The notes below the pieces were generated by a model. That model saw nothing but the letters and a program-made list of their open reading frames with translations, was not told where the DNA came from and made no database searches. 32,000 nt of DNA. It comes from Propionibacteriaceae bacterium. Its GTDB lineage: Bacteria; Actinomycetota; Actinomycetes; Propionibacteriales; Propionibacteriaceae. Both the position numbers and the translations under genes were made by a program. Of this stretch, positions 1 through 14,616 are shown one piece after another (position 1 is the stretch's first letter; each line of letters opens with the position of its first letter). Where the stretch lies: assembly GCA_031256725.1 (NCBI GenBank), contig JAIRQE010000026.1, positions 1 through 32,000 of the forward strand, read 5' to 3'.

Positions 1-177
1 CGCCCCCTTAATATGAGTCTGGAAGTGCATCTGCCCATCCCGCTGACCAGGGGCCGGGTTCTCCACATCAATCCGCCACGTCCTACCATCAGACAATCGA
101 CCAGATTTCGCTGTATAACCATTCGGAAGTTTGATGCACACCTCACCATATCCATCAACAAGCAGGCCACGAGTCGC
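1..177 (-). CDS. Partial ORF of unknown function that runs off the left edge
   Basis: The minus-strand frame is open from 177 to 1 (..LLVDGYGEVCIKLPNGYTAKSGRLSDGRTWRIDVENPAPGQRDGQMHFQTHIKGA..). It follows the TAA-TGA double stop of the WD40 gene in the same frame. Only GTG/TTG starts are available. It is absent from the ORF track because it has no stop inside the window. Confidence 0.25.
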
Positions 178-180
178 TCA

Positions 181-1194
181 TTATACGATAATACGATGTA
201 CTGTAATCCCACTATCGTGACCGATTACAAGAACATCATCCACTGCTGCAAGACGTCCAACCCTTCCTTCTGTGGTAGATATCGTCCGTAGTTCTCGATT
301 ATGAATGACATTCCACAACTGAACCTCCCTCTGATCTGTAGCCATGGCAACAATCACCTCACCTCCTGAATGGACTACAGCCATATCGTTAATCAAAGCA
401 TCTCTACTGACCACTCCACGCGAAACAATGACACCAAGAGTAATATTAGAAACACAATATTTTCCATGCCAACCACTTGTCACCACATAATGATTTTTGT
501 TGCTTTCATATAAACACATCCTTCTCATGTGTCCAACTTTAACGAAACCACTTTGCACAATCTCATCGTCAACCCACCAACGCACGACACCATCCCCACC
601 ACCACTCACGATTATGGATGACTCATTCGATCGCGCCACTTCCACTTTCCTGACACCCCCCCGAACAACCCACGATCTCAGCACATCACCTGAGGTGACA
701 TCCCACACACGAACACTTCCATCACGCCCAGCAGAGACAACCTGACCCTCGCCTTCACGATACGCAACCGATCTCACCCAGTCTCCATGATTCCCAAAGA
801 CACGACGACACTGCCCTGTTACCACATCCCATAAGCGTACTGACCCATCATGTCCCCCCGAAACCACAACATGCTTACCCCCAAGCTGCCCATGTGCAAG
901 CGACGAGGACCACGCGGACCTGAGAATCCACCCCGGAATATGTGACCCATCATCCCGAAAGACGCCTACTGCGGTATCATATTCTGGGTCGCCCACGAAC
1001 ACCGACACATACTCACCAGACCATGCACATCTGAGTTGAACCTCATTCTCATATGAAATAGCAACCACGGGCTTACCGTTCATTTGCCACACGCAGAGAG
1101 TCTCAGGACCCATGCGCCCAACGCGAGGCACACGAATTGTGTACCCATCTGTGCTATTCCTGGAAGACATCTCTTTAAAATCATCCATACCCAA
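181..1194 (-). CDS. WD40 / beta-propeller repeat protein; by position a candidate immunity protein for the toxin-like fragment directly upstream
   Basis: 337-aa ORF with visible WD-type repeat units: GGHDGSVRLWDVVTGQ, SAGRDGSVRVWDVTSGD, SGGGDGVVRWW. The start is TTG at 1194 or ATG at 1188, 10-16 nt after the stop (1205-1207) of the toxin-like fragment. Confidence 0.75.
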   Translation of the reverse strand: MGMDDFKEMSSRNSTDGYTIRVPRVGRMGPETLCVWQMNGKPVVAISYENEVQLRCAWSGEYVSVFVGDPEYDTAVGVFRDDGSHIPGWILRSAWSSSLAHGQLGGKHVVVSGGHDGSVRLWDVVTGQCRRVFGNHGDWVRSVAYREGEGQVVSAGRDGSVRVWDVTSGDVLRSWVVRGGVRKVEVARSNESSIIVSGGGDGVVRWWVDDEIVQSGFVKVGHMRRMCLYESNKNHYVVTSGWHGKYCVSNITLGVIVSRGVVSRDALINDMAVVHSGGEVIVAMATDQREVQLWNVIHNRELRTISTTEGRVGRLAAVDDVLVIGHDSGITVHRIIV

Positions 1195-1204
1195 AGCCTA
1201 ATAC

Positions 1205-1510
1205 CTATCTCCAAAACACTGTCACTACCCAACCATTCTCATTGAGAACAACACCCATTCTCTCGTCCGTAAATAGCCATGTTCTATTCCCTTCTTGCCA
1301 CTGGGGATTTGATGAAGGACTATCAACGAGGGCCTCAGCTTCTCCCCTACTTATCAATCGATTGGATGCTTGATCCTCCGCATGGGGCGTCCAGCCATTA
1401 ACATGGCTCGGCCAGGGCTGATCGTCGTCGTCTGGGTCGGAGAAGTCGGTGGGTGGTCGTTTGATTCCTCCGGAGTTTCCTCCGCCAGCGGTGTCGAATG
1501 CTCGTGATGC
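1205..1510 (-). pseudogene. Orphan polymorphic-toxin C-terminal module without a start codon: Gly-rich/Pro-Pro linker plus a ~65-aa putative toxin domain
   Basis: Hand translation of the minus-strand frame between stops gives ASRAFDTAGGGNSGGIKRPPTDFSDPDDDDQPWPSHVNGWTPHAEDQASNRLISRGEAEALVDSPSSNPQWQEGNRTWLFTDERMGVVLNENGWVVTVFWR*. There is no ATG/GTG near the 5' end, so it is missing from the ORF track. The GGG..PP linker resembles those at 2030-2090 and 3290-3330. The tail (..GVVLNENGWVVTVFWR) is reminiscent of small RNase-type (DUF4258/RelE-like) toxin ends, but this is unverified. Confidence 0.45.
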
Positions 1511-1721
1511 TCAAACTGTGGTGGAACTAAGAATGTTCCCGGTTGTGGATACACCCTCACGTGACCCAGGAAAAACAACACAAAACACCTACAGATCCAC
1601 CAGTCGTACTGCACAACAACGATATGAAGATTTCAGTCACCATGTGAAAGATATCCATTGCGGGAGTGCGGATCATCTCACGAATCAGAATCCTGTACCA
1701 CCCTCGAGTGGGGTCACGTGT

Positions 1722-2417
1722 GTGGGGTGTGAAGGTGGGTTCATTCCTTGGGATACGGCTGCTGTTCCGGCGGACTTTGATGAGTTCTGGAAGTTTATTA
1801 AATGGTGGAGGGACTTGTATCGTTCTATTCCTCCTGGCCCTTGGAAAAAGTATGCTAGTATCGCATTTTATGGGGTGTTGGTAGTTTCCGTCATAGCGTA
1901 TTTAATAGCTAATTTGGAGGCTCTTGATGACGTCCTTGAGGAACTCGAAGACATCATCAATGAAGAAAAGGAGATGACCGAAAAAGAGTTCAATGATCTC
2001 CTTGAACAACTCAAAAATCATCCCGGCCAAAAAGGCGGAAACGGATCCGGTGGAGGCGGAAACAAACCACCAGCCCCACCTATAGGAGTACCCGACCCAG
2101 AAAATGACGACAAAGAGTGGCCAAAACAGGAAAACGGAAACTGTGAAGACGTGGCTAAAGAGATTTACAAGCGTCTTAATGAGAAGAACCAACTCAACGA
2201 TACGGGTGCCGAATTAGAAATTAAAGAGATTACATCCAAATTGCGAGTCTTGGGTCCATCTAAACATAATCCTGATGGTGATTGGTGGAATCATTATGTA
2301 GTAGTCGATAAGACCAATAGGCGAGTTTATGATGGAACTACTGGTCCGAATGGTGTTTCCTATGAGGAGTATAAGTCATGGTTTGAATATGACGATTTCA
2401 TAAATTGGGGGTTTTAA
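1722..2417 (+). CDS. Putative polymorphic toxin: TM anchor, acidic coiled coil, Gly/Pro linker and a C-terminal Cys-His-Asp (papain-fold-like) domain
   Basis: The track ORF is 1449..2417. Its first ~90 codons overlap the opposite-strand fragment and look non-coding. GTG at 1722 is the first plausible start, but this is uncertain. Visible elements are a TM helix (YASIAFYGVLVVSVIAYLIANL), a coiled coil (LEALDDVLEELEDIINEEKEMTEKEFNDLLEQL) and a linker (GGNGSGGGGNKPPAPP). The C-terminal domain has ordered Cys (GNCEDVA), His (WWNHYVVV) and Asp (RVYDG). Confidence 0.55.
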   Translation: MGCEGGFIPWDTAAVPADFDEFWKFIKWWRDLYRSIPPGPWKKYASIAFYGVLVVSVIAYLIANLEALDDVLEELEDIINEEKEMTEKEFNDLLEQLKNHPGQKGGNGSGGGGNKPPAPPIGVPDPENDDKEWPKQENGNCEDVAKEIYKRLNEKNQLNDTGAELEIKEITSKLRVLGPSKHNPDGDWWNHYVVVDKTNRRVYDGTTGPNGVSYEEYKSWFEYDDFINWGF

Positions 2418-2431
2418 GGAAAGGGGTGTAA

Positions 2432-3127
2432 ATGAAGACTGATCATGAGAAGGAAGTGTTTGATCTCGTAAGACTTATTTTTCGTGGAATTCGAACAGCA
2501 GTGATGAGGGAGGAGTTTTTTGCTGTGGTCGATTTTCTTCATGGTATAGATTCATGTTGCGGCTACCTTGACCTGAATGAAGGGTTCAATAATTGGCTCG
2601 TACCTAAACTCGGACTTAAGTCATGTTATAGGGAATGGCCGTGGCTGGTTTTGGATCTCTTTCACGTATCTGACGAGGAGGATAAAAGAGTTATTCCTGG
2701 TCAGGAGCGAGAACTCATTGCTGGGTTAGGAGCGTTGCTCTGTGAGTATATAGACGAAAAAAAGGCTGGAGATATTGATAGGCACTCTAGGAATCAGGTG
2801 TTCTCTATGGTTGAAACCATTTTTGAAACGCCTAGTGTTTTCGTCATGCGGGAAGAGTTCTTTGCGGTTGTTGACTATATCAATGGTATTGATTCGTGCT
2901 GTGAATACCTTGAGTTGAATCGTGGCTTCCATGATTGGCTTCTACCTAAACTTGGACTTCGATCCTGTAGCTATGCATGGCCGTGGTTGGTTCTCAAATT
3001 ACTTCCTGGATATGAAGCAGATCACATGGCGAGAGTCTTCCCGAGTCGTGAACGTGAACTCATTGATGGGCTTGGAAAACTCATGTGCGAATACCTGAAT
3101 GAGAAGCAATCTAATGCATTCCGATAA
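2432..3127 (+). CDS. Putative cognate immunity protein built from two tandem copies of one ~103-aa domain
   Basis: The ATG lies 14 nt after the toxin stop, preceded by AAGGAAAGGGG. Copy 1 is aa 9-111 (nt 2456-2764) and copy 2 is aa 123-226 (nt 2798-3109). They share VMREEFFAVVD, NGIDSCC.YL.LN.GF..WL.PKLGL.SC, WPWLVL, RELI.GLG.L.CEY..EK. They are roughly 60% identical by eye. Confidence 0.7.
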   Translation: MKTDHEKEVFDLVRLIFRGIRTAVMREEFFAVVDFLHGIDSCCGYLDLNEGFNNWLVPKLGLKSCYREWPWLVLDLFHVSDEEDKRVIPGQERELIAGLGALLCEYIDEKKAGDIDRHSRNQVFSMVETIFETPSVFVMREEFFAVVDYINGIDSCCEYLELNRGFHDWLLPKLGLRSCSYAWPWLVLKLLPGYEADHMARVFPSRERELIDGLGKLMCEYLNEKQSNAFR

Positions 3128-3192
3128 GTAATGATGCCTTGAATCGTCCGACAATAATCCTTATCAGATATATTATTTATTTTGCTATTTAG

Positions 3193-3342
3193 CCGACAAA
3201 ACTCATTGGCGAATTGAGAGAAGAGCTTGGGTTAACCGATGAAGAAATCGAAGAGTTCCTTGAATCCTTATTCGGGTTAGACTCGACAGGCGGTGGTGAC
3301 AATGATCCACCAAACAACGATCCACCTACAGGACTACGATGA
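3193..3342 (+). pseudogene. Remnant of another toxin gene of the same family: only the coiled-coil end and the Gly/Pro linker remain
   Basis: The frame between stops reads PTKLIGELREELGLTDEEIEEFLESLFGLDSTGGGDNDPPNNDPPTGLR*. LTDEEIEEFLESL parallels MTEKEFNDLLEQL of the 1722-2417 protein, and TGGGDNDPP parallels its GGGGNKPP linker. There is no start codon and no toxin domain. Confidence 0.45.
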
Positions 3343-3375
3343 TTAAAGAAACTTTAGAAACTGGGTCGTCGGGTT

Positions 3376-3522
3376 GTGATGGAAGACCACACAGGGGAAT
3401 CAACCTATGAATATGATGAATTAGGAAGACTGACACGTGTCACCCAGGCAAGTGGACGAGCTGTCACATACACCTACACCTGTGATGGATATATTAATGA
3501 GATTGGGTATCCCGATGGTTCT
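3376..3522 (+). pseudogene. RHS/YD-repeat fragment (relic)
   Basis: The first 49 codons of track ORF 3376..3750 read ESTYEYDELGRLTRVTQASGRAVTYTYTCDGYINEIGYPDGS. This matches the YD-repeat pattern YxYDxxGRL..(x)..YxY. Similarity ends after that point, and the ORF then runs into the XRE gene in another frame. Confidence 0.55.
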
Positions 3523-3674
3523 CATGGCGTGATGACGAGGTTTTCTCAACACCTGGTGGAGTGTTCTGGTATGGGTTCGCTCATAGTGTGGCACAACAGG
3601 CAACATGAAACCAATATGACGCACAGGGGCGCCAATGTGCGCCTCGGAGGCTACTTTGACACTTCACTCAAAAA

Positions 3675-3688
3675 GTGTAAAATTACAC
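3675..3688. promoter_or_regulatory. Perfect 6-2-6 inverted repeat GTGTAA-aa-TTACAC; candidate operator upstream of the XRE gene
   Basis: The repeat was read directly from the sequence. It lies 20-33 nt upstream of the ATG at 3708, just before the GGGAAGGGG Shine-Dalgarno sequence. Confidence 0.3.
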
Positions 3689-3707
3689 TATCTGGGAAGG
3701 GGTACAC

Positions 3708-4160
3708 ATGCCAGACAAGAGGGCAGAGTTCATCGCAACATGTGATGTGAAGCTACGCCTTGTCCGCGTGGAGGCCGATCTGACTCAAGAAGAGATGGCA
3801 TACGCTCTGGGGATTTCAAAGAAGACTCTCGTCGATATTGAAAAGGGTCGCAGGACCCTTGGATGGACTGGATCAGTGGCTCTGTGCGCAGTGTTCCCCA
3901 GTTCGGAGGTCATAGCATCCGCCTTTGGTGGGCATCCAAGCGAGATGATCCCGGCTTTAGCACGTACCGATCAAATTCCTCAGCGGGAATCTGGGGGAAA
4001 TCCCTGGTGGGAAACCATCGCTGACAACGGACAATTCATTATCGAGCAGAACCTTATCTCCCAGCATTATCGATTGCTCACCCATGACCGGACCAAGGTT
4101 GCGGCCTCCTTCGATATTGATGATCTTGTACCCCTCTTCCATGGGCAACCAAAGGAGTAG
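3708..4160 (+). CDS. XRE-family helix-turn-helix transcriptional regulator with an uncharacterised C-terminal domain
   Basis: The HTH signature LTQEEMAYALGISKKTLVDIEKGRR is visible. The stop lies 2 nt before the next gene, and AAGGAG inside its 3' end serves the downstream ATG. Confidence 0.8.
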   Translation: MPDKRAEFIATCDVKLRLVRVEADLTQEEMAYALGISKKTLVDIEKGRRTLGWTGSVALCAVFPSSEVIASAFGGHPSEMIPALARTDQIPQRESGGNPWWETIADNGQFIIEQNLISQHYRLLTHDRTKVAASFDIDDLVPLFHGQPKE

Positions 4161-8153: not shown

Positions 8154-10016
8154 ATGCCAACACGACCTGATCTGCGAAATGTCGCCATCATTGCACACGT
8201 CGACCACGGAAAGACCACTCTTGTGGATGCGATGCTGTGGCAATCAGGTGCCTTCCGCGCCAACCAGGAAGTGGAAACCCGGGTCATGGATTCCATGGAT
8301 CTGGAGCGTGAGAAGGGGATCACGATCCTCGCTAAGAACACCTCTGTGGCCTCCCATGATGCTGAGGGAAATCCGATCCTCATCAACATCATTGATACCC
8401 CTGGTCACGCTGACTTCGGTGGTGAAGTTGAACGTGGTTTAGAGATGGTTGACGGGGTACTCCTGCTCGTCGATGCTAGTGAAGGGCCGCTGCCTCAGAC
8501 GAGATTCGTCCTGCGTAAGGCCCTCGCCAAACATCTGCCGATTGTACTGGTTGTCAACAAGGTTGACCGTGCGGATGCCCGAATTGCCGAGGTCGTGGAT
8601 GAGACCTATGCCCTGTTCATGGATCTCCTGGATGATGATGAGGCCGATAAACTCGATTTCCCTATCGTGTACTGTGCGGCTAAGGCGGGTCGCGCATCCT
8701 TGAACCAACCAGCAGATGCCACGATGCCTGATTCCGAGAATCTGCGCCCCCTGTTTGAGACAATCTTCACTCACATTCCCGCTCCCTCCTATGAGGAGGG
8801 CCACTGTCTTCAAGCCCATGTCACTAACCTGGATGCATCCCCCTATCTGGGGCGTTTGGCCTTGTGCCGAGTGGTGAATGGTACCCTCACCAAGGGTCAG
8901 ATGGTGGCGTGGTGTAAGCGCGATGGCTCTGTGGTGAATGTGAAACTTTCAGAGTTGTTGCGTACGGAAGCCCTTGATCGTGTACCAGCCGAATCCGCAG
9001 GACCTGGTGACATCGTGGCTATCGCGGGAATCCCCGAGATCAACATCGGTGAAACTCTCTCCGATCCCGATAACCCTCTACCGCTTCCGCTGATCCATGT
9101 CGATGAGCCCTCGATCTCGGTGACTGTCGGGATCAACACCTCTCCCTTGTCTGGTCGTTCCGGCAAGAATCTGACGGCCCGACTCGTCAAGGCCCGCCTG
9201 GATCAAGAGTTGGTGGGCAATGTTTCCATTCGCGTGCTCCCCACTGAACGCCCCGATGCTTGGGAGGTACAGGGCCGGGGCGAACTCCAACTTGCCATCC
9301 TCGTCGAGATCATGAGGCGTGAATCCTTCGAGCTCACTGTCGGCAAACCCCAGGTGGTCACCAAAACCATCGACGGGAAACTCCACGAACCAACTGAAAG
9401 ACTCACCATTGATGCCCCCGAAGAGTACGTCGGCGCCGTCACCCAACTCCTGGGTCTACGCAAGGGACGCCTCGAACAGATGGTCAACCACGGTACAGGT
9501 TGGGTACGCATCGAGTACATCGTCCCCGCGCGTGGACTCATCGGTTTCCGTACTGAATTCCTCACCGAAACCAGGGGTACGGGCATCATGAACCACGTCT
9601 TCGAAGGCTACGAGCCGTGGGCCGGTGACATGCGTCTACGCCCAACCGGCTCCCTGGTGGCCGACCGTTCCGGGACTGTAACCTCCTATGCTCTATTCAA
9701 CCTCCAAGAACGCGGCTCCCTGTTCATCTCCCCTGGCATGGAGGTGTACGAAGGCATGATCGTTGGCGAGAATCCCCGCCAAGAAGACATGGATGTCAAC
9801 CCCACCAAGGAAAAGAAGCTTACCAATATCCGTTCCTCCACTGGCGATGAACTGGAGAGGTTGGTGCCCGCTCGAATCCTGAGTCTGGAGGCCGCTCTAG
9901 AGTTCTGTCGCGAGGATGAGTGCGTGGAGATCACCCCCTCGGAAATCCGACTGCGCAAGGTTGAACTCGACGCGAACAAGCGTGCTCGTACCCGTTCGAG
10001 GGCAAAGAGTGCCTGA
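8154..10016 (+). CDS. typA: Translational GTPase TypA/BipA
   Basis: 620 aa with G1 [10 protein letters not shown]3 DTPGHADF and G4 NKVD. The length and EF-G-like domain order are characteristic. Confidence 0.95.
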
Positions 10017-10077
10017 TACTCGTGCTGGGAATCCACCGGCGCTCTCGCGGGGGCGTCGTCTAGCACCATGGTCTTTG

Positions 10078-10923
10078 ATGATCATGGCGATCCTATGGGG
10101 GTCGACCTTCTTCTCCATCAAGCGGATTCTGCTCCATCTTCCCGTGAGCGATTTCTTGGCAGTACGATTCCTCATCTCGACTGTGGTACTCGTGATCGTC
10201 TTCCATCGATCCTTGAAGATGAGCAGCCGTACCCTCATTCGCGGGCTGATCCTTGGGGGACTGTGGGCTGCAGCACAACTCCTCCAAACCGCTGGACTCG
10301 CTCACACCGCCGCATCGATCTCCGGATTCGTCACAGGGTTGTACGTGGTCTTCACCCCCGTTTTGGGGCTCATCGTCTTCCGGTTTCGAGTACATCGCTG
10401 GGTGTGGGTAGCAGTCGGCTTAGCGACACTTGGGCTCGCAGCGCTCACGATCCGCCCCGATTCCGAGACCTTCATAGGGTACGGGGAGGCCCTCACTATC
10501 GGATGTGCTGTGATGTACGCCCTCCACATCGTGATCATGGGGCAGTGGTCCACCCCCGAAGAGGCGGGTGCTCTGACGGTAGGCCAATCTGTTTCGATGA
10601 CAGCCATCTTCTTCATCTTTGCTGCTCCGGGTGGGATCACCCTACCCTCCACTGGAGTTGATTGGGCTTGGATGATCTACCTAGCGGTGATCTGTGGGGC
10701 CCTGACCCTGCTGATCCAGACCTGGGCCCAAGGACACATGGAGGCATCCAAGGCCGCAGTCATCATGTGTTCTGAACCTTTGTGGGCTACCTTCTTTGCG
10801 ATTCTTCTCGGTGGTGAGAGACCCAATTGGCTCTTCGCCGTAGGTGCGATTGCGATCCTTGTGGCGATGTATCTGGTGATCCGTCCACCGCCCAATTCAA
10901 AAGACTCCGCCACTATCCAGTAA
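10078..10923 (+). CDS. EamA/DMT-family transporter
   Basis: About 10 TM helices in two halves, with an N-terminus MIMAILWGSTFFSIKR. The track ORF start at 9916 overlaps typA and is rejected. ATG at 10078 is the first start after the typA stop. Confidence 0.8.
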   Translation: MIMAILWGSTFFSIKRILLHLPVSDFLAVRFLISTVVLVIVFHRSLKMSSRTLIRGLILGGLWAAAQLLQTAGLAHTAASISGFVTGLYVVFTPVLGLIVFRFRVHRWVWVAVGLATLGLAALTIRPDSETFIGYGEALTIGCAVMYALHIVIMGQWSTPEEAGALTVGQSVSMTAIFFIFAAPGGITLPSTGVDWAWMIYLAVICGALTLLIQTWAQGHMEASKAAVIMCSEPLWATFFAILLGGERPNWLFAVGAIAILVAMYLVIRPPPNSKDSATIQ

Positions 10924-11140
10924 CTCCAAAGGTGCAAACCTCATCATCTTGCTTGGAGGGTGAAGAGAATGATATGCCAACAAGATACTACTCCCGATGG
11001 GTCTGTAGGAGGCGGATTTATATTTCTTGAGCGTAGATTCGTGGGACCAAAAAAAAGTGTCTTGAAATATGAGAAAACTCTTGACAAGATTATCTAGTTT
11101 TGTGGGATGATACCTATATCTACCCAAGGAGGGGGTTGTC

Positions 11141-11209
11141 ATGAAGCGTCGTTTCTCTGTTCTTCCAGTCGCTGAGGTATACGGAGGCCCCCCAGTAGTT
11201 CATGTGTGA
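11141..11209 (+). CDS. 22-codon ORF at the head of the array (MKRRFSVLPVAEVYGGPPVVHV); possibly a collapsed T-type gene (T1 remnant) or a leader peptide
   Basis: A strong Shine-Dalgarno sequence AAGGAGGGGG lies 5-7 nt before the ATG. TTGACA at 11081-11086 lies upstream. The stop is 12 nt before I1. Similarity to other T tails is weak. Confidence 0.25.
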   Translation: MKRRFSVLPVAEVYGGPPVVHV

Positions 11210-11221
11210 AAGGATGGGACT

Positions 11222-11533
11222 ATGACGATTAAGGAAGATTCATCGGTTGACCAAATGTCAAATAACCTACAACGGAAAATCACTCATATCGCAGTACTCG
11301 TAGTGCCTTTGTCTTGCATGCTGGGGTTTTGTGGTGGCATTCTGGAGAAAACTGCGGTTGCGAAAAACGATGGTTTTTTGACCTATGGTATCCGCCTAGC
11401 TGCCATTCTGGTATTCACTTATACTATGATTCATTTATCACAACATGGAATTCGCGGGTGGCAGAAAATACTCTGCATCATAGTGTCACTACTTATTATA
11501 TGTGGAACAATGTGGTATGTGCTGAGCCTTTAG
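11222..11533 (+). CDS. I1: 103-aa three-TM membrane protein of the IRGW family (putative immunity protein)
   Basis: MTIKEDSS..ITHIAVLVVPLSCMLGFCGGIL..YGIRLAAILVFTYTMIHL..GIRGWQKILCIIVSLLIICGTMWYVLSL. AAAGGA lies 8 nt before the ATG. Confidence 0.7.
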   Translation: MTIKEDSSVDQMSNNLQRKITHIAVLVVPLSCMLGFCGGILEKTAVAKNDGFLTYGIRLAAILVFTYTMIHLSQHGIRGWQKILCIIVSLLIICGTMWYVLSL

Positions 11534-11568
11534 GATTTGAGCAGGGCGTCTATAAACTGACAGGCTAG
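11521..11568 (+). pseudogene. T2 remnant: only the last ~15 codons of a T-type gene (AEPLGFEQGVYKLTG*), fused onto the 3' end of I1
   Basis: This is the tail of track ORF 11314..11568. The rest of that ORF is an off-frame shadow of I1. The FEQGVY peptide is shared with T3 and T5. Confidence 0.4.
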
Positions 11569-11747
11569 AGGGGGGAAGGAATAGTGGTTGGGTGTGTTGA
11601 ATATCGGGGCTTCGTGAATCGGTATAATCAACTCTCGAACACTCAGCGGATTCAGTAGTCTCTGTGGCAAATGCAAAGTCAGGTAGGTTGCCAGCAACAT
11701 AGTGAATTGAATGCTCGTCGGAGCTAATACTTGGCGGAGGTGTCTCA

Positions 11748-12059
11748 TTGCCGGAAAATAAGGAACAGAATTCTCGAAAACTTGGGGTAGATGCGTTGAA
11801 ATCAGTAAGATACTTTGCCCTGTTCGTGTTGCCATTGGTAGTCTTGTTGGGTTATTCGGGGGTAATGCTAGAAAGTAATTTCGAAAGAATGGAAACTGTA
11901 CCGTATATTGGCGTTCGCGTGGCTTCGGCTATGATGATAGTTGCCCTAATACTTGGGTTCCGTTCTCAAGGAATACGAGGATGGTATCTTATTGTATGTT
12001 CTGTTGCTGGAACAGTCGTTTGGTTATTGACAGTTTGGTATTTCTGGCCAAGCGTTTGA
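11748..12059 (+). CDS. I2: 103-aa three-TM IRGW-family membrane protein
   Basis: TTG start with GGCGGAGG 7 nt upstream. Sequence: ..VRYFALFVLPLVVLLGYSGVML..VPYIGVRVASAMMIVALILGF..GIRGWYLIVCSVAGTVVWLLTVWYFW. Confidence 0.7.
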   Translation: MPENKEQNSRKLGVDALKSVRYFALFVLPLVVLLGYSGVMLESNFERMETVPYIGVRVASAMMIVALILGFRSQGIRGWYLIVCSVAGTVVWLLTVWYFWPSV

Positions 12060-12160
12060 GCTTGGTTGCGGTTGCTGAGGCTCGGAAGTCTCGTGAGCAT
12101 GTGGCTGGCTCATCCAAACTATGATGTCATCAAGGCATCGGAAACTCCTGAACCTGCGGA

Positions 12161-12283
12161 GTGAGACTGTCGGAAAACGGTGGGTGGGGGCTTGGTCTGA
12201 CATGCCGAGGAACGTATACATGCACCTCGAAGAATGTAACTCTGTATGCGAAGTGGAAAGCCGTGGGTGGTACTATGACGATT
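12161..12283 (+). pseudogene. Relic sequence: possible Flg_new (Listeria-Bacteroides) repeat end (..KNVTLYAKWKAV) followed by a relic I-type gene start (GGTMTI)
   Basis: Track ORF 12161..12355 reads ..GGWGLGLTCRGTYTCTSKNVTLYAKWKAVGGTMTISVV... The VTLYAKW ending is typical of Flg_new repeats. Positions 12266-12283 match 11213-11230 (the I1 start region) at 16 of 18 nt. Confidence 0.3.
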
Positions 12284-12308
12284 TCAGTCGTTAAACACTT
12301 TACGTGTT

Positions 12309-12725
12309 GTGATGTACTTGCCAGAAGATCCCACAGTGCCAGAAGAAGCAGCTGATAACTTCTTTCAAGGTATGATGAAGGTGGATAATCCAGAAGCAGT
12401 TTTAGCCATAATAACTACAGAGGGTAGGGCAGCTGCAGTGGCAGCTATCTGCACGGGCTTGATGGTATCATCTTTCGCGGCAGGTCTGACAGTAGCTGCT
12501 ATTAATGCATCAGCGTATTTGGACTATACGGCTCAACAGAATGATCTCATTGATGCATATTATAGTTCTTCAAGTGGTTTCCTAGTGGTTGATTCTATGG
12601 TCATCATCACAAATCGTAATGGGATAATATATACAGATCGCTATGTTGACTATTACAGAGCAACCGATATCAATGCTGCGCCGGGAGGATCCTTTGAACA
12701 AGGGGTATATCATATAGGCTCATAG
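12309..12725 (+). CDS. T3: small Ala/Gly-rich protein ending in FEQGVYHIGS (putative toxin/bacteriocin-like partner of I3)
   Basis: 138-aa ORF. An alternative ATG at 12372 gives 117 aa, similar to T5. The central segment is RAAAVAAICTGLMVSSFAAGLTVAAINA. It aligns with T5 at AV..II.E.G, AAG, Q.N, G.LV.V, YRAT and FEQGV. The stop lies 33 nt before I3. Confidence 0.6.
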   Translation: MMYLPEDPTVPEEAADNFFQGMMKVDNPEAVLAIITTEGRAAAVAAICTGLMVSSFAAGLTVAAINASAYLDYTAQQNDLIDAYYSSSSGFLVVDSMVIITNRNGIIYTDRYVDYYRATDINAAPGGSFEQGVYHIGS

Positions 12726-12758
12726 TGGGAAAATTGGAGATTTGATAGAAGGACAGCA

Positions 12759-13070
12759 ATGGAGAATAGTGAATTCGGCATTGATTCGAAGAAAAGAGCG
12801 AAAGAAACATCTCACTTTTTTGTATTATATCTAATTCCAATGTCATGCTTGATTGGGTATTCCCTTGTCACGGCGCAGTCGAACGCAAATCATGAAGGCG
12901 GAATGTTGGCGCTTGGCGTGGGCCTATGCGTTTCTTTGTTGATTGTCCACACTATATACGAATTACGCACTCACAATATACGGGGTTGGTTTGCGGTTGC
13001 CTGCATTGTAGGAGCAATGATTACCCAAGGGCTAACAATATGGTATTGTCTGGCTTCAGTGAAGACGTGA
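12759..13070 (+). CDS. I3: 103-aa three-TM IRGW-family membrane protein
   Basis: GAAGGA lies 6 nt before the ATG. Sequence: ..SHFFVLYLIPMSCLIGYSLV..MLALGVGLCVSLLIVHTIY..NIRGWFAVACIVGAMITQGLTIWYCL. Confidence 0.7.
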   Translation: MENSEFGIDSKKRAKETSHFFVLYLIPMSCLIGYSLVTAQSNANHEGGMLALGVGLCVSLLIVHTIYELRTHNIRGWFAVACIVGAMITQGLTIWYCLASVKT

Positions 13071-13292
13071 TTGGGAATTCGCAGATCGTATGCTTCGAGT
13101 TCTAATTCGAGAAGTGGAATGGGAATTGTCGTATCTTTATGATTTCCTAGCTTATAAAGCATCCGAAGTAGCGGCTTCCTTATTATAGATGACTCATTTA
13201 CTAATGCGTCGCATGCGGTCTACTATAGCTACGGTGTTGATGTAGTCAGCCTAGGAGTATTCAAGCCCGGGATATATGATATTCTATCATAG
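13063..13292 (+). pseudogene. T4: broken T-type gene with N- and C-terminal pieces in different frames and the central segment deleted
   Basis: Frame 1 (13063-13188) reads RRDWEFADRMLRVLIREVEWELSYLYDFLAYKASEVAASLL*, compared with the T5 N-terminus EEWDAVVRIIAEAG. Frame 0 (13158-13292) reads SIRSSGFLIIDDSFTNASHAVYYSYGVDVVSLGVFKPGIYDILS*, compared with the T3 tail SSSGFLVVDS..FEQGVYHIGS*. Confidence 0.45.
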
Positions 13293-13357
13293 TATGACGT
13301 AAAATGGGTTCTGATGGATTACAGTAAGTGGGAAGGTTGTCTTTACCCTTTAATGAT

Positions 13358-13717
13358 ATGAAAAGCAGGGAAAACTTGAATCCTGAGATTGAGGTGTCCA
13401 AGATAGTCGAGCATGACCAGCCACCTATAACTGATGGGCGGATAGTGAAGATGCGAAGGGCACTTGGTTACTTCATATCATTCTTATTGCCAGTAGGTTG
13501 CCTCATGGGTTGTGGCATTGTGTTAATTCAGCCGGAGGCAGGAGAGAAAATTAGATACTTTCCTTATATTGGGGTTCATGTGGCCCTAGCCATGTTGCTT
13601 GTGTACATCGTCTACGACTTTCCATTGCGTCGAATACGAGGTCAGTATGCCGTTGGTTGTTTTGTGGGGTTGATGATAGTTCTGTCTCTGACGATATGGT
13701 ATCTCATGACTCATTAG
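13358..13717 (+). CDS. I4: three-TM IRGW-family membrane protein (motif variant IRGQ) with a longer N-terminus
   Basis: The track ORF starts at GTG 13328, but ATG 13358 (MKSRENLN..) fits the other paralogues better. Neither has a clear Shine-Dalgarno sequence. Sequence: ..YFISFLLPVGCLMGCGIVL..FPYIGVHVALAMLLVYIVY..RIRGQYAVGCFVGLMIVLSLTIWYLM. Confidence 0.65.
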   Translation: MKSRENLNPEIEVSKIVEHDQPPITDGRIVKMRRALGYFISFLLPVGCLMGCGIVLIQPEAGEKIRYFPYIGVHVALAMLLVYIVYDFPLRRIRGQYAVGCFVGLMIVLSLTIWYLMTH

Positions 13718-13763
13718 TAATGATAGTTATTTAGTAGAGACGCGCCCTTTTTGCTAGGAGCTA

Positions 13764-14102
13764 TTGTGGATTGAGAAATCATCCGAGGAAGAGTGGGATG
13801 CGGTCGTTAGGATAATAGCAGAGGCTGGTCTTGTTGATACGGCCGCTGAAATTGCCGTTCGATTTACTCTACCTGGGAAGGTTGCAGCAGGGATTGTGTC
13901 AATATTGGCTGGGATGATAGAGGTTGATATGATCCACCAGAGAAACATGCTTCGTGTGGCAATCACTGCCTGCCCAGACAACGGTCTGGTGGAGGTGCAC
14001 CAGGTCGTTGGTACGCGTCTCCCCATCACGTATAGGGCGACCATGGAAGTTGAGGGTAGTGGTGATTTCGAGCAAGGTGTTCATCGATATACCGCTCGCT
14101 AG
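13764..14102 (+). CDS. T5: 112-aa T-type protein ending in FEQGVHRYTAR
   Basis: A TTG start is the only option in frame, and AGGAG lies just 3 nt upstream, so it may not be efficiently translated. It is homologous to T3 along its whole length. The stop lies 30 nt before I5. Confidence 0.5.
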   Translation: MWIEKSSEEEWDAVVRIIAEAGLVDTAAEIAVRFTLPGKVAAGIVSILAGMIEVDMIHQRNMLRVAITACPDNGLVEVHQVVGTRLPITYRATMEVEGSGDFEQGVHRYTAR

Positions 14103-14132
14103 AAAAGTGTCGTTTACTCTTAAGGATTTTAA

Positions 14133-14445
14133 ATGAAAGAAACGGATGATATAAGCTCAGAGGAGCATCAGGGTCAGACTTTTCGAATAGTGGGTTACTT
14201 GGTAATGCGCATTGTTCCTTTGTCCATCGTGTTTGGATTTGCTGCTGCCCAGAGTGTAAGGCTCGAAGCAACTGGAATGGAAGGCATACTACGACTCATT
14301 ATACACTATATCACTTATAGTTGTATTTGGGGGTAACTCTATCGAACTGAATAATTATCGGATAAAAGGTTGGGCGCGGTTTGCCTGTTTCGTGGCATCA
14401 CTGGGTCTTGTAACCGCGACAGCTTGGTATGCACTTACTCTTTAG
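14133..14445 (+). pseudogene. I5: IRGW-family gene (variant IKGW) disrupted by a frameshift near 14300
   Basis: Frame 0 (track ORF 14133..14336) reads MKETDD..IVGYLVMRIVPLSIVFGFAAA..GILRLII and then stops. The family sequence continues in the +1 frame as ..TISLIVVFGGNSIELNNYRIKGWARFACFVASLGLVTATAWYALTL*, with its stop at 14443-14445. Confidence 0.6.
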
Positions 14446-14574
14446 AATTCTGACTATATCTTGGGCGCCCACCCCCACTTAATCTGAGAGGAGCCCGTTT
14501 GTGTCTGAATTGTGACCTGAATACGTTCGGATTGTGAGCAACAGTACTGGTTGACGCGATAGAATCATGAGGTT

Positions 14575-14591
14575 GGGCGCGAGGCGCGCCC
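14575..14591 (+). promoter_or_regulatory. GC hairpin (GGGCGCG-agg-CGCGCCC) in the 5' leader of the ABC operon, downstream of a TAGAAT -10-like hexamer at 14560-14565
   Basis: A perfect 7-bp inverted repeat with a 3-nt loop was read directly. It lies 26 nt before the ATG at 14617. No U-tract follows. Confidence 0.3.
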
Positions 14592-14616
14592 GTGTACAAC
14601 CAACCAAGGAGACGCA

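Follow-up and report, generated by a model that had tools for sequence, protein, structure and literature searches.

At polymorphic toxin loci, toxin cassettes stand in arrays with immunity genes next to them, and Sec is one of the export routes (PMC3482391). Immunity proteins against antibacterial pore-formers normally reside in the cytoplasmic membrane (PMC9558359). We investigated an array of small genes in a 32,000-nucleotide stretch of DNA from a Propionibacteriaceae bacterium (GenBank assembly GCA_031256725.1, contig JAIRQE010000026.1, positions 1 to 32,000), referred to here as the window. The array lies in an island of low guanine-plus-cytosine (GC) content (10924..14616, no strand assigned) between eamA and an ABC substrate-binding gene. 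It comprises two gene families on the forward strand, T (candidate toxin tips) and I (putative immunity genes). With a probability of about 0.65, we read the array as orphan tips of a Sec-secreted, membrane-damaging bacteriocin or polymorphic toxin alongside membrane immunity genes that have been kept, all of it probably acquired from outside.

Sec-exported polymorphic toxin loci of the type II secretion system (T2SS) class (Zhang et al. 2012, PMC3482391; Neisseria MafB and S8-PTS, PMC9424270) share several features with this system. These are a signal peptide followed by a binding or repeat region and a C-terminal variable domain, an immunity gene that follows it directly, and, on a foreign island, start-less or truncated tips arrayed with immunity genes. 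The tips in those loci are unrelated toxin domains, whereas those described here belong to one family and form an allelic series. The carrier also differs, being composed here of Inhibitor_I36 and Flg_new domains. None of the terms Flg_new, Listeria-Bacteroides and crystallin occurs in the text of PMC3482391, and neither a full-length carrier nor an S8 peptidase nor a MafA-like partner was found in the present genome or locus. Pore-forming colicins and S. aureus TspA/TsaI (PMC9558359) likewise combine a hydrophobic helical C-terminal domain with a small integral-membrane partner encoded downstream. T differs from them in its length (~130 amino acids, aa), its predicted helical-then-beta layout in place of a ten-helix bundle and its Sec export, and no sequence or structure likeness to them was detected. 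Propionicin F/PcfI and propionicin SM1 (PMC5756557), probably from a related host group, are comparable as Sec-exported or large-precursor bacteriocins with membrane immunity (PcfI). Unlike theirs, the present locus has no processing genes (pcfBCD) nearby, and its carrier bears repeats. A weak lead at the level of language-model features points to PF28044 Bacteriocin_BacA (Pfam 38.1), with similarities of 0.89 and 0.91 to a 121-aa Bacillota cluster, 13% of whose members carry this family. A polyimmunity locus, in which tandem immunity genes are never interrupted (Zhang et al. 2012), was considered and rejected because T3, T5 and relics of further T cassettes stand between the I genes.

The array consists of orphan tip and immunity cassettes, as in polymorphic toxin systems. 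Judged from its sequence, the locus would work in the manner of Sec-exported polymorphic toxin loci, or of large bacteriocin loci, that carry orphan cassettes, and it is an incomplete member of this group. Its value lies in an uncatalogued T and I pair, and one intact example ties the pair to a carrier that the principal survey of polymorphic toxins does not mention. Catalogues cover the membrane-active antibacterial proteins of Gram-positive bacteria poorly. With three T domains and five intact variants of I, four from this array and one from outside, a cross-protection matrix could be set up to ask how a small membrane immunity protein distinguishes between toxin alleles.

Five homologous I genes of ~100 aa each were found, with three hydrophobic segments in I1–I4. 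Homology among these four is far past chance (tblastn E values 1e-6 to 1e-14). I1 (11222..11533) and I3 (12759..13070, 33 bp 3' of T3) each encode a putative 103-aa immunity protein with three predicted transmembrane (TM) segments. I2 (11748..12059) encodes a similar 3-TM protein with an uncertain start, and I4 (13358..13717) another that may begin at 13328, 13358 or 13451. The loop ahead of the third TM helix holds a motif reading IRGW in I1, I2 and I3 (at 11450, 11973 and 12978) and IRGQ in I4 (at 13634). I5 (14133..14445) is split by a frameshift near 14300–14310 and carries IKGW at 14362 in the second frame; its two halves match an I profile made without I5 (E 6e-6 and 5e-4). The same break is present in a Logan contig of the probable source run, the only contig found to cover the island, which comes from the same sample and is not independent.

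T genes are present in several states. T3 (12309..12725) is an open frame encoding a complete T domain without a signal peptide, in which Gly/Ala-rich hydrophobic helices precede a predicted beta region; it ends in GSFEQGVY. T5 (13764..14102), also open and without a signal peptide, encodes a 112-aa domain shortened at its N-terminus, with the tail GDFEQGVH. T4 is a remnant that retains the final 44 codons of a T domain (13158..13292; p=0.001 for its match to T3 against shuffles). The preliminary description had taken the FEQGV at 11536–11550 for the end of a T protein, but it lies in a relic of ~10–15 codons (EPLGFEQGVYKLTG, 11521..11568; p=0.015 against shuffles) that sits out of frame behind the I1 stop and has no T body. 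A further relic at 12242..12274, out of frame with T3, reads LYAKWKAVGGT and has no Pfam match by itself. T then I, spaced by 30–65 bp, is an order seen three times in the array and once in a distant genome; the small cognate gene follows directly in T3–I3, T4–I4, T5–I5 and the outside pair (L008/L016).

The outside pair gave the intact form. Searching with the I profile retrieved one outside protein, P0006, which also contains IRGW, and the gene upstream of it ends in a T domain. That gene encodes P0008, a 669-aa full-length T carrier consisting of a signal peptide, Inhibitor_I36, five Flg_new repeats, a Pro-rich linker and the T domain, as assigned from sequence. Its N-terminus is of the Sec type (a basic N-terminus, a hydrophobic stretch at 7–33 and AFA), Inhibitor_I36 at 31–113 is a probable binding domain, and the C-terminus reads GTFLEGVFLT. 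The I gene begins 41 bp past P0008. T3 is 28% identical to residues 546–667 of P0008 (E 2e-6), and T3 and T5 score 104 and 72 against this outside T domain, compared with shuffle maxima of 63 and 50. The relic at 12242..12274 represents the last Flg_new repeat and linker, scoring 47 against the P0008 junction LYAIWKAEGGT (shuffle maximum 41, p=0.001). Because this relic stands ahead of T3 and matches the junction, T3 was once the tip of a Flg_new carrier. The outside host is another actinobacterium, with an mnmA 50–54% identical to Nocardioides/Aeromicrobium records and 48% identical to that of the present genome. As on the island, its T–I pair is lower in GC than its neighbours.

The present genome retains only the junction relic of the export signal, stalk and C-terminal domain layout seen in P0008. 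It encodes Flg_new surface proteins, none with a terminal T domain, and gave no Inhibitor_I36 match over the cut-off; it has no full-length T carrier. Two of its Flg_new genes, a 1269-codon surface protein (C10:39763-43572) and a 277-codon piece (C18:18369-19202), have a near-identical last repeat and C-terminus, which suggests that they are related by duplication or gene conversion. In the array itself the T genes have decayed and four I genes (I1–I4) are intact, a pattern of predicted toxin loss with immunity kept.

A mechanism consistent with these observations can be proposed. In the intact form, a Sec-exported carrier would present Inhibitor_I36, five Flg_new spacers, a Pro-rich linker and a T domain of ~130 aa, and a 3-TM I protein would be encoded immediately downstream. 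The T domain would most likely act on related bacteria by damaging their membrane with its Gly/Ala-rich hydrophobic helices, and the I protein would most likely counter T from inside the membrane. In the carrier-less genome the orphan T tips have decayed to different degrees, and the four I genes that are intact and divergent would probably serve as a library of immunities against several toxin variants of neighbours.

Several observations weigh against a membrane-damaging toxin. The T domains carry a net acidic charge (-5 to -11), which sets them apart from most small pore-forming bacteriocins. No sequence or structure likeness to any characterised toxin was found, and searches with T and I in Pfam, NCBIfam, PHROGs and PDB sequences returned no match over the cut-off. 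By this measure neither T nor I belongs to a catalogued family. Structure models were unreliable (AlphaFold predicted local distance difference test, pLDDT, 39 and 33), and an Atlas fold search with one low-confidence model was uninformative (template modelling score <0.4 by query). The T–I pair is known from one outside locus only, and with one carrier found, the same carrier bearing a different, unrelated toxic tip was not seen. Other sampled Flg_new proteins end in apparent adhesin, binding or anchor domains, and none of 79 distant Flg_new protein loci (31–49%) carries a T domain. The carrier alone does not imply toxicity, given these adhesin-, binding- and anchor-like ends.

These last findings also bear on an alternative in which T is the non-toxic membrane-anchoring or docking end of an adhesin, I its dedicated membrane partner or chaperone, and the array a collection of discarded, variable ends of surface proteins. 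Flg_new repeats serve generically as spacers in surface proteins, the sampled carriers of these repeats end in apparent anchor or binding domains, P0008 has no other recognisable anchor, and T is both hydrophobic and acidic, as this alternative would have it. The layout of the domain argues against it. A single long hydrophobic region in T (Kyte–Doolittle, KD, 1.7–2.2) is followed by ~55 aa of predicted beta structure and not by a short basic stop-transfer tail. Moreover, four intact, divergent I genes without a carrier would be odd for an assembly partner and are typical of immunity genes. We consider an adhesin anchor unlikely. Cognate pairing with high sequence divergence would also fit a signalling pair, in which a secreted pro-protein and its cognate membrane receptor mediate kin recognition without killing. 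However, almost nothing of an I protein forms a cytoplasmic or extracellular domain, and neither locus has a regulator or kinase beside it, making a receptor role improbable.

Homologues of either family are scarce in the data sets searched. T3 used alone retrieved only itself, and a T3+T5 profile run against 1.84 billion representatives retrieved only T3 and T5; the three-sequence T profile was not run on shorter and near-length ranges, so that standalone relatives may be missed. The T profile gave no convincing member in 250 family and 400 phylum genomes, its four weak matches being unrelated hydrophobic stretches. Likewise, the I profile gave none outside the present genome in 60 relatives, 250 family and 300 order genomes. 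No T or I member was found in 19 congeners, and plasmid and phage searches yielded no T or I match. The negatives from genome samples apply to the genomes searched.

The C-terminal tail of T was examined next, because the preliminary description proposed FEQGV(Y/H) as a secretion, processing or docking tag placed 4–6 residues from the stop. For the three tails it listed the stop indeed follows 5, 5 and 6 residues after the motif, and across all five known T ends the distance is 3–6 residues. Its sequence was found to be less constant. A fourth, omitted tail, that of T4, reads GVFKPGIY, so that FEQGV is not invariant even within the array. The consensus is GxFxxG[VI][YFH], seen as FEQGV, FKPGI and FLEGV, with variable E and Q positions and with G, F, G, one hydrophobic and one aromatic position kept. 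Among the four aligned T ends, invariance is limited to G, Y, G, F and G. In both low-confidence models the tail forms the final strand after three others, and it is probably the closing strand of the predicted T domain, a structural part of the fold.

As a tag, the motif would make T3 and T5 standalone secreted peptides, exported for example by a type VII system. Its constant placement near the stop in all five ends is compatible with this, as is the single YxxxD in T3. The genome also encodes a type VII secretion locus with WXG100 and EccC-like genes (C22:19909-28380). However, P0008, the full-length homologue, begins with a Sec-type signal peptide, the tail sequence is variable, and YxxxD/E is absent from T4, T5 and P0008. 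These features do not fit a type VII (ESX) substrate, and no WXG100 match was obtained on the island. The motif was found on the T domain only and on no unrelated protein: FEQGV is C-terminal nowhere else in the present genome, and none of 90 pattern matches in metagenomes and 46 in genomes proved homologous by tblastn. A secretion or processing tag is very improbable, the least credible of the alternatives weighed here; the tail may dock to the I partner. A more specific version of the toxin reading can be put forward only tentatively and is rather doubtful as a whole. In it, an undescribed actinobacterial family of Sec-exported, membrane-attacking toxins on an Inhibitor_I36 and Flg_new repeat stalk would pair a new helix-plus-beta toxin domain with a new family of 3-TM IRGW immunity proteins. 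Alleles would pass between genomes in cassette form and accumulate into a library of immunities of one family, and the GxFxxG tail would lie in the surface recognised by I.

We also re-examined the codon usage of the two motifs, from which old, protein-selected paralogues had been proposed. All eight reported codon strings and their translations are exact. The IRGW peptide is constant in I1–I3 and departs from the motif in I4 (IRGQ) and I5 (IKGW). Synonymous change at nearly every third position was an overstatement for IRGW: 16/26 same-residue degenerate codon pairs differ, whereas saturation with equal codon usage predicts 19.2. ATA encodes Ile in 4/5 copies and GGT encodes Gly in 3/5, and Trp cannot vary. 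For FEQGV, 12/15 same-residue codon pairs differ (9 expected). An argument for selection from these motifs is circular, as they were picked for being conserved and cannot by themselves test selection; for this reason whole genes were tested.

Codon alignments of I1–I4 gave identities of 0.44, 0.61 and 0.36 at positions 1, 2 and 3, with proportions of nonsynonymous (pN) and synonymous (pS) differences of 0.46 and 0.75. Neutral simulations at similar nucleotide identity and with the same alignment method gave pN 0.52 and pS 0.62. Simulations with an omega (dN/dS) of 0.25–0.33 matched both observed values, although omega is only roughly bounded because dS is saturated. Identical codons among same-residue codons numbered 60/152 in I (51 expected at saturation) and 8/23 in T3/T5 (8.2 expected). 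The whole genes thus bear out purifying selection and an old divergence in place of a recent DNA amplification, with synonymous saturation and pN far under pS beyond neutral simulations, and a dN/dS near 1 does not fit. A four-residue motif kept like IRGW arose in 0–1% of neutral runs and 1–4% of uniform-omega runs; being rare in the latter as well, IRGW is more constrained than the gene average. Conservation of both motifs extends outside the present genome, to IRGW in P0006 and GTFLEGVF in P0008. IRGW and GxFxxG[VI][YFH] are the conserved cores of two families that are old and constrained at the protein level. Synonymous saturation is seen in any set of homologues at 20–38% identity, and the codon observation is correct but routine. 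Part of the constraint lies in the past: two T copies survive only as relics, and I5 carries a frameshift.

The word paralogues is more doubtful than the age of the genes. Pairwise identity among the I copies is 21–38%, compared with 24–35% to the distant homologue P0006. As the copies are about as far apart as they are from an actinobacterial homologue, the age of the genes does not make the array itself old. Recombination from outside, rather than duplication in place, probably brought the cassettes together. This fits better with the failure to find members in the 19 congeners and in the samples of 250–400 related genomes, with the neighbour layouts in three of them (G011, G003 and G007) and with a host-gene fragment inside the island. 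In G011 the gap between eamA and the ABC gene is ~400 bp, and in G003 and G007 the ABC gene is adjoined by typA. The fragment (12061..12120, forward strand) is a 60-bp piece of a host sensor-kinase gene placed immediately 3' of the I2 stop codon (blastn 84% identity, E 3e-11). It copies contig C1:1728-1790 of the host genome, where the source gene lies beside pst and response-regulator genes, and is a recombination scar, a piece of a host gene captured within the island. In-place duplication is not formally rejected by the I tree, which has no starred branches, carries long-branch warnings and cannot decide the matter.

The island is foreign in origin. Its GC content is ~44% over 3.7 kb, against 53–58% in the flanks and ~53% for the chromosome. 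The bacterium carrying it is probably a termite-gut organism, with a termite-gut metagenome as the probable source sample; no RNA data set was listed as carrying the sequence. To the left (8154-10923), typA and eamA face the ABC operon, and in three congeners (L187, L192 and L193) they face away; this opposite direction places the island at an inversion or rearrangement breakpoint. A promoter scan gave scores no better than the shuffle range. The I1 start and the region upstream of T3 share a 17/19 repeat, which was marginal by our estimate and was not used.

Minor features of the island and window were also recorded. A 22-codon open reading frame (11141..11209, forward strand) with a strong Shine-Dalgarno sequence ahead of it (AAGGAGGGGG) has no Pfam match. 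Past the relic T tail, a purine-rich, ribosome-binding-like sequence (11569-11658) opens a frame of ~24 codons that stops well ahead of I2; this frame may be the beginning of an I gene that has been deleted. The right edge of the island (14468-14499) holds a 28–33-bp sequence with 91–96% copies at three more genome sites (C15:54305-54336, C15:123357-123389 and C11:689-716), possibly a small dispersed intergenic repeat. Another low-GC stretch occupies 1-3750 of the window and includes an RHS-repeat fragment at 3376-3750 (PF05593, E 4e-12).

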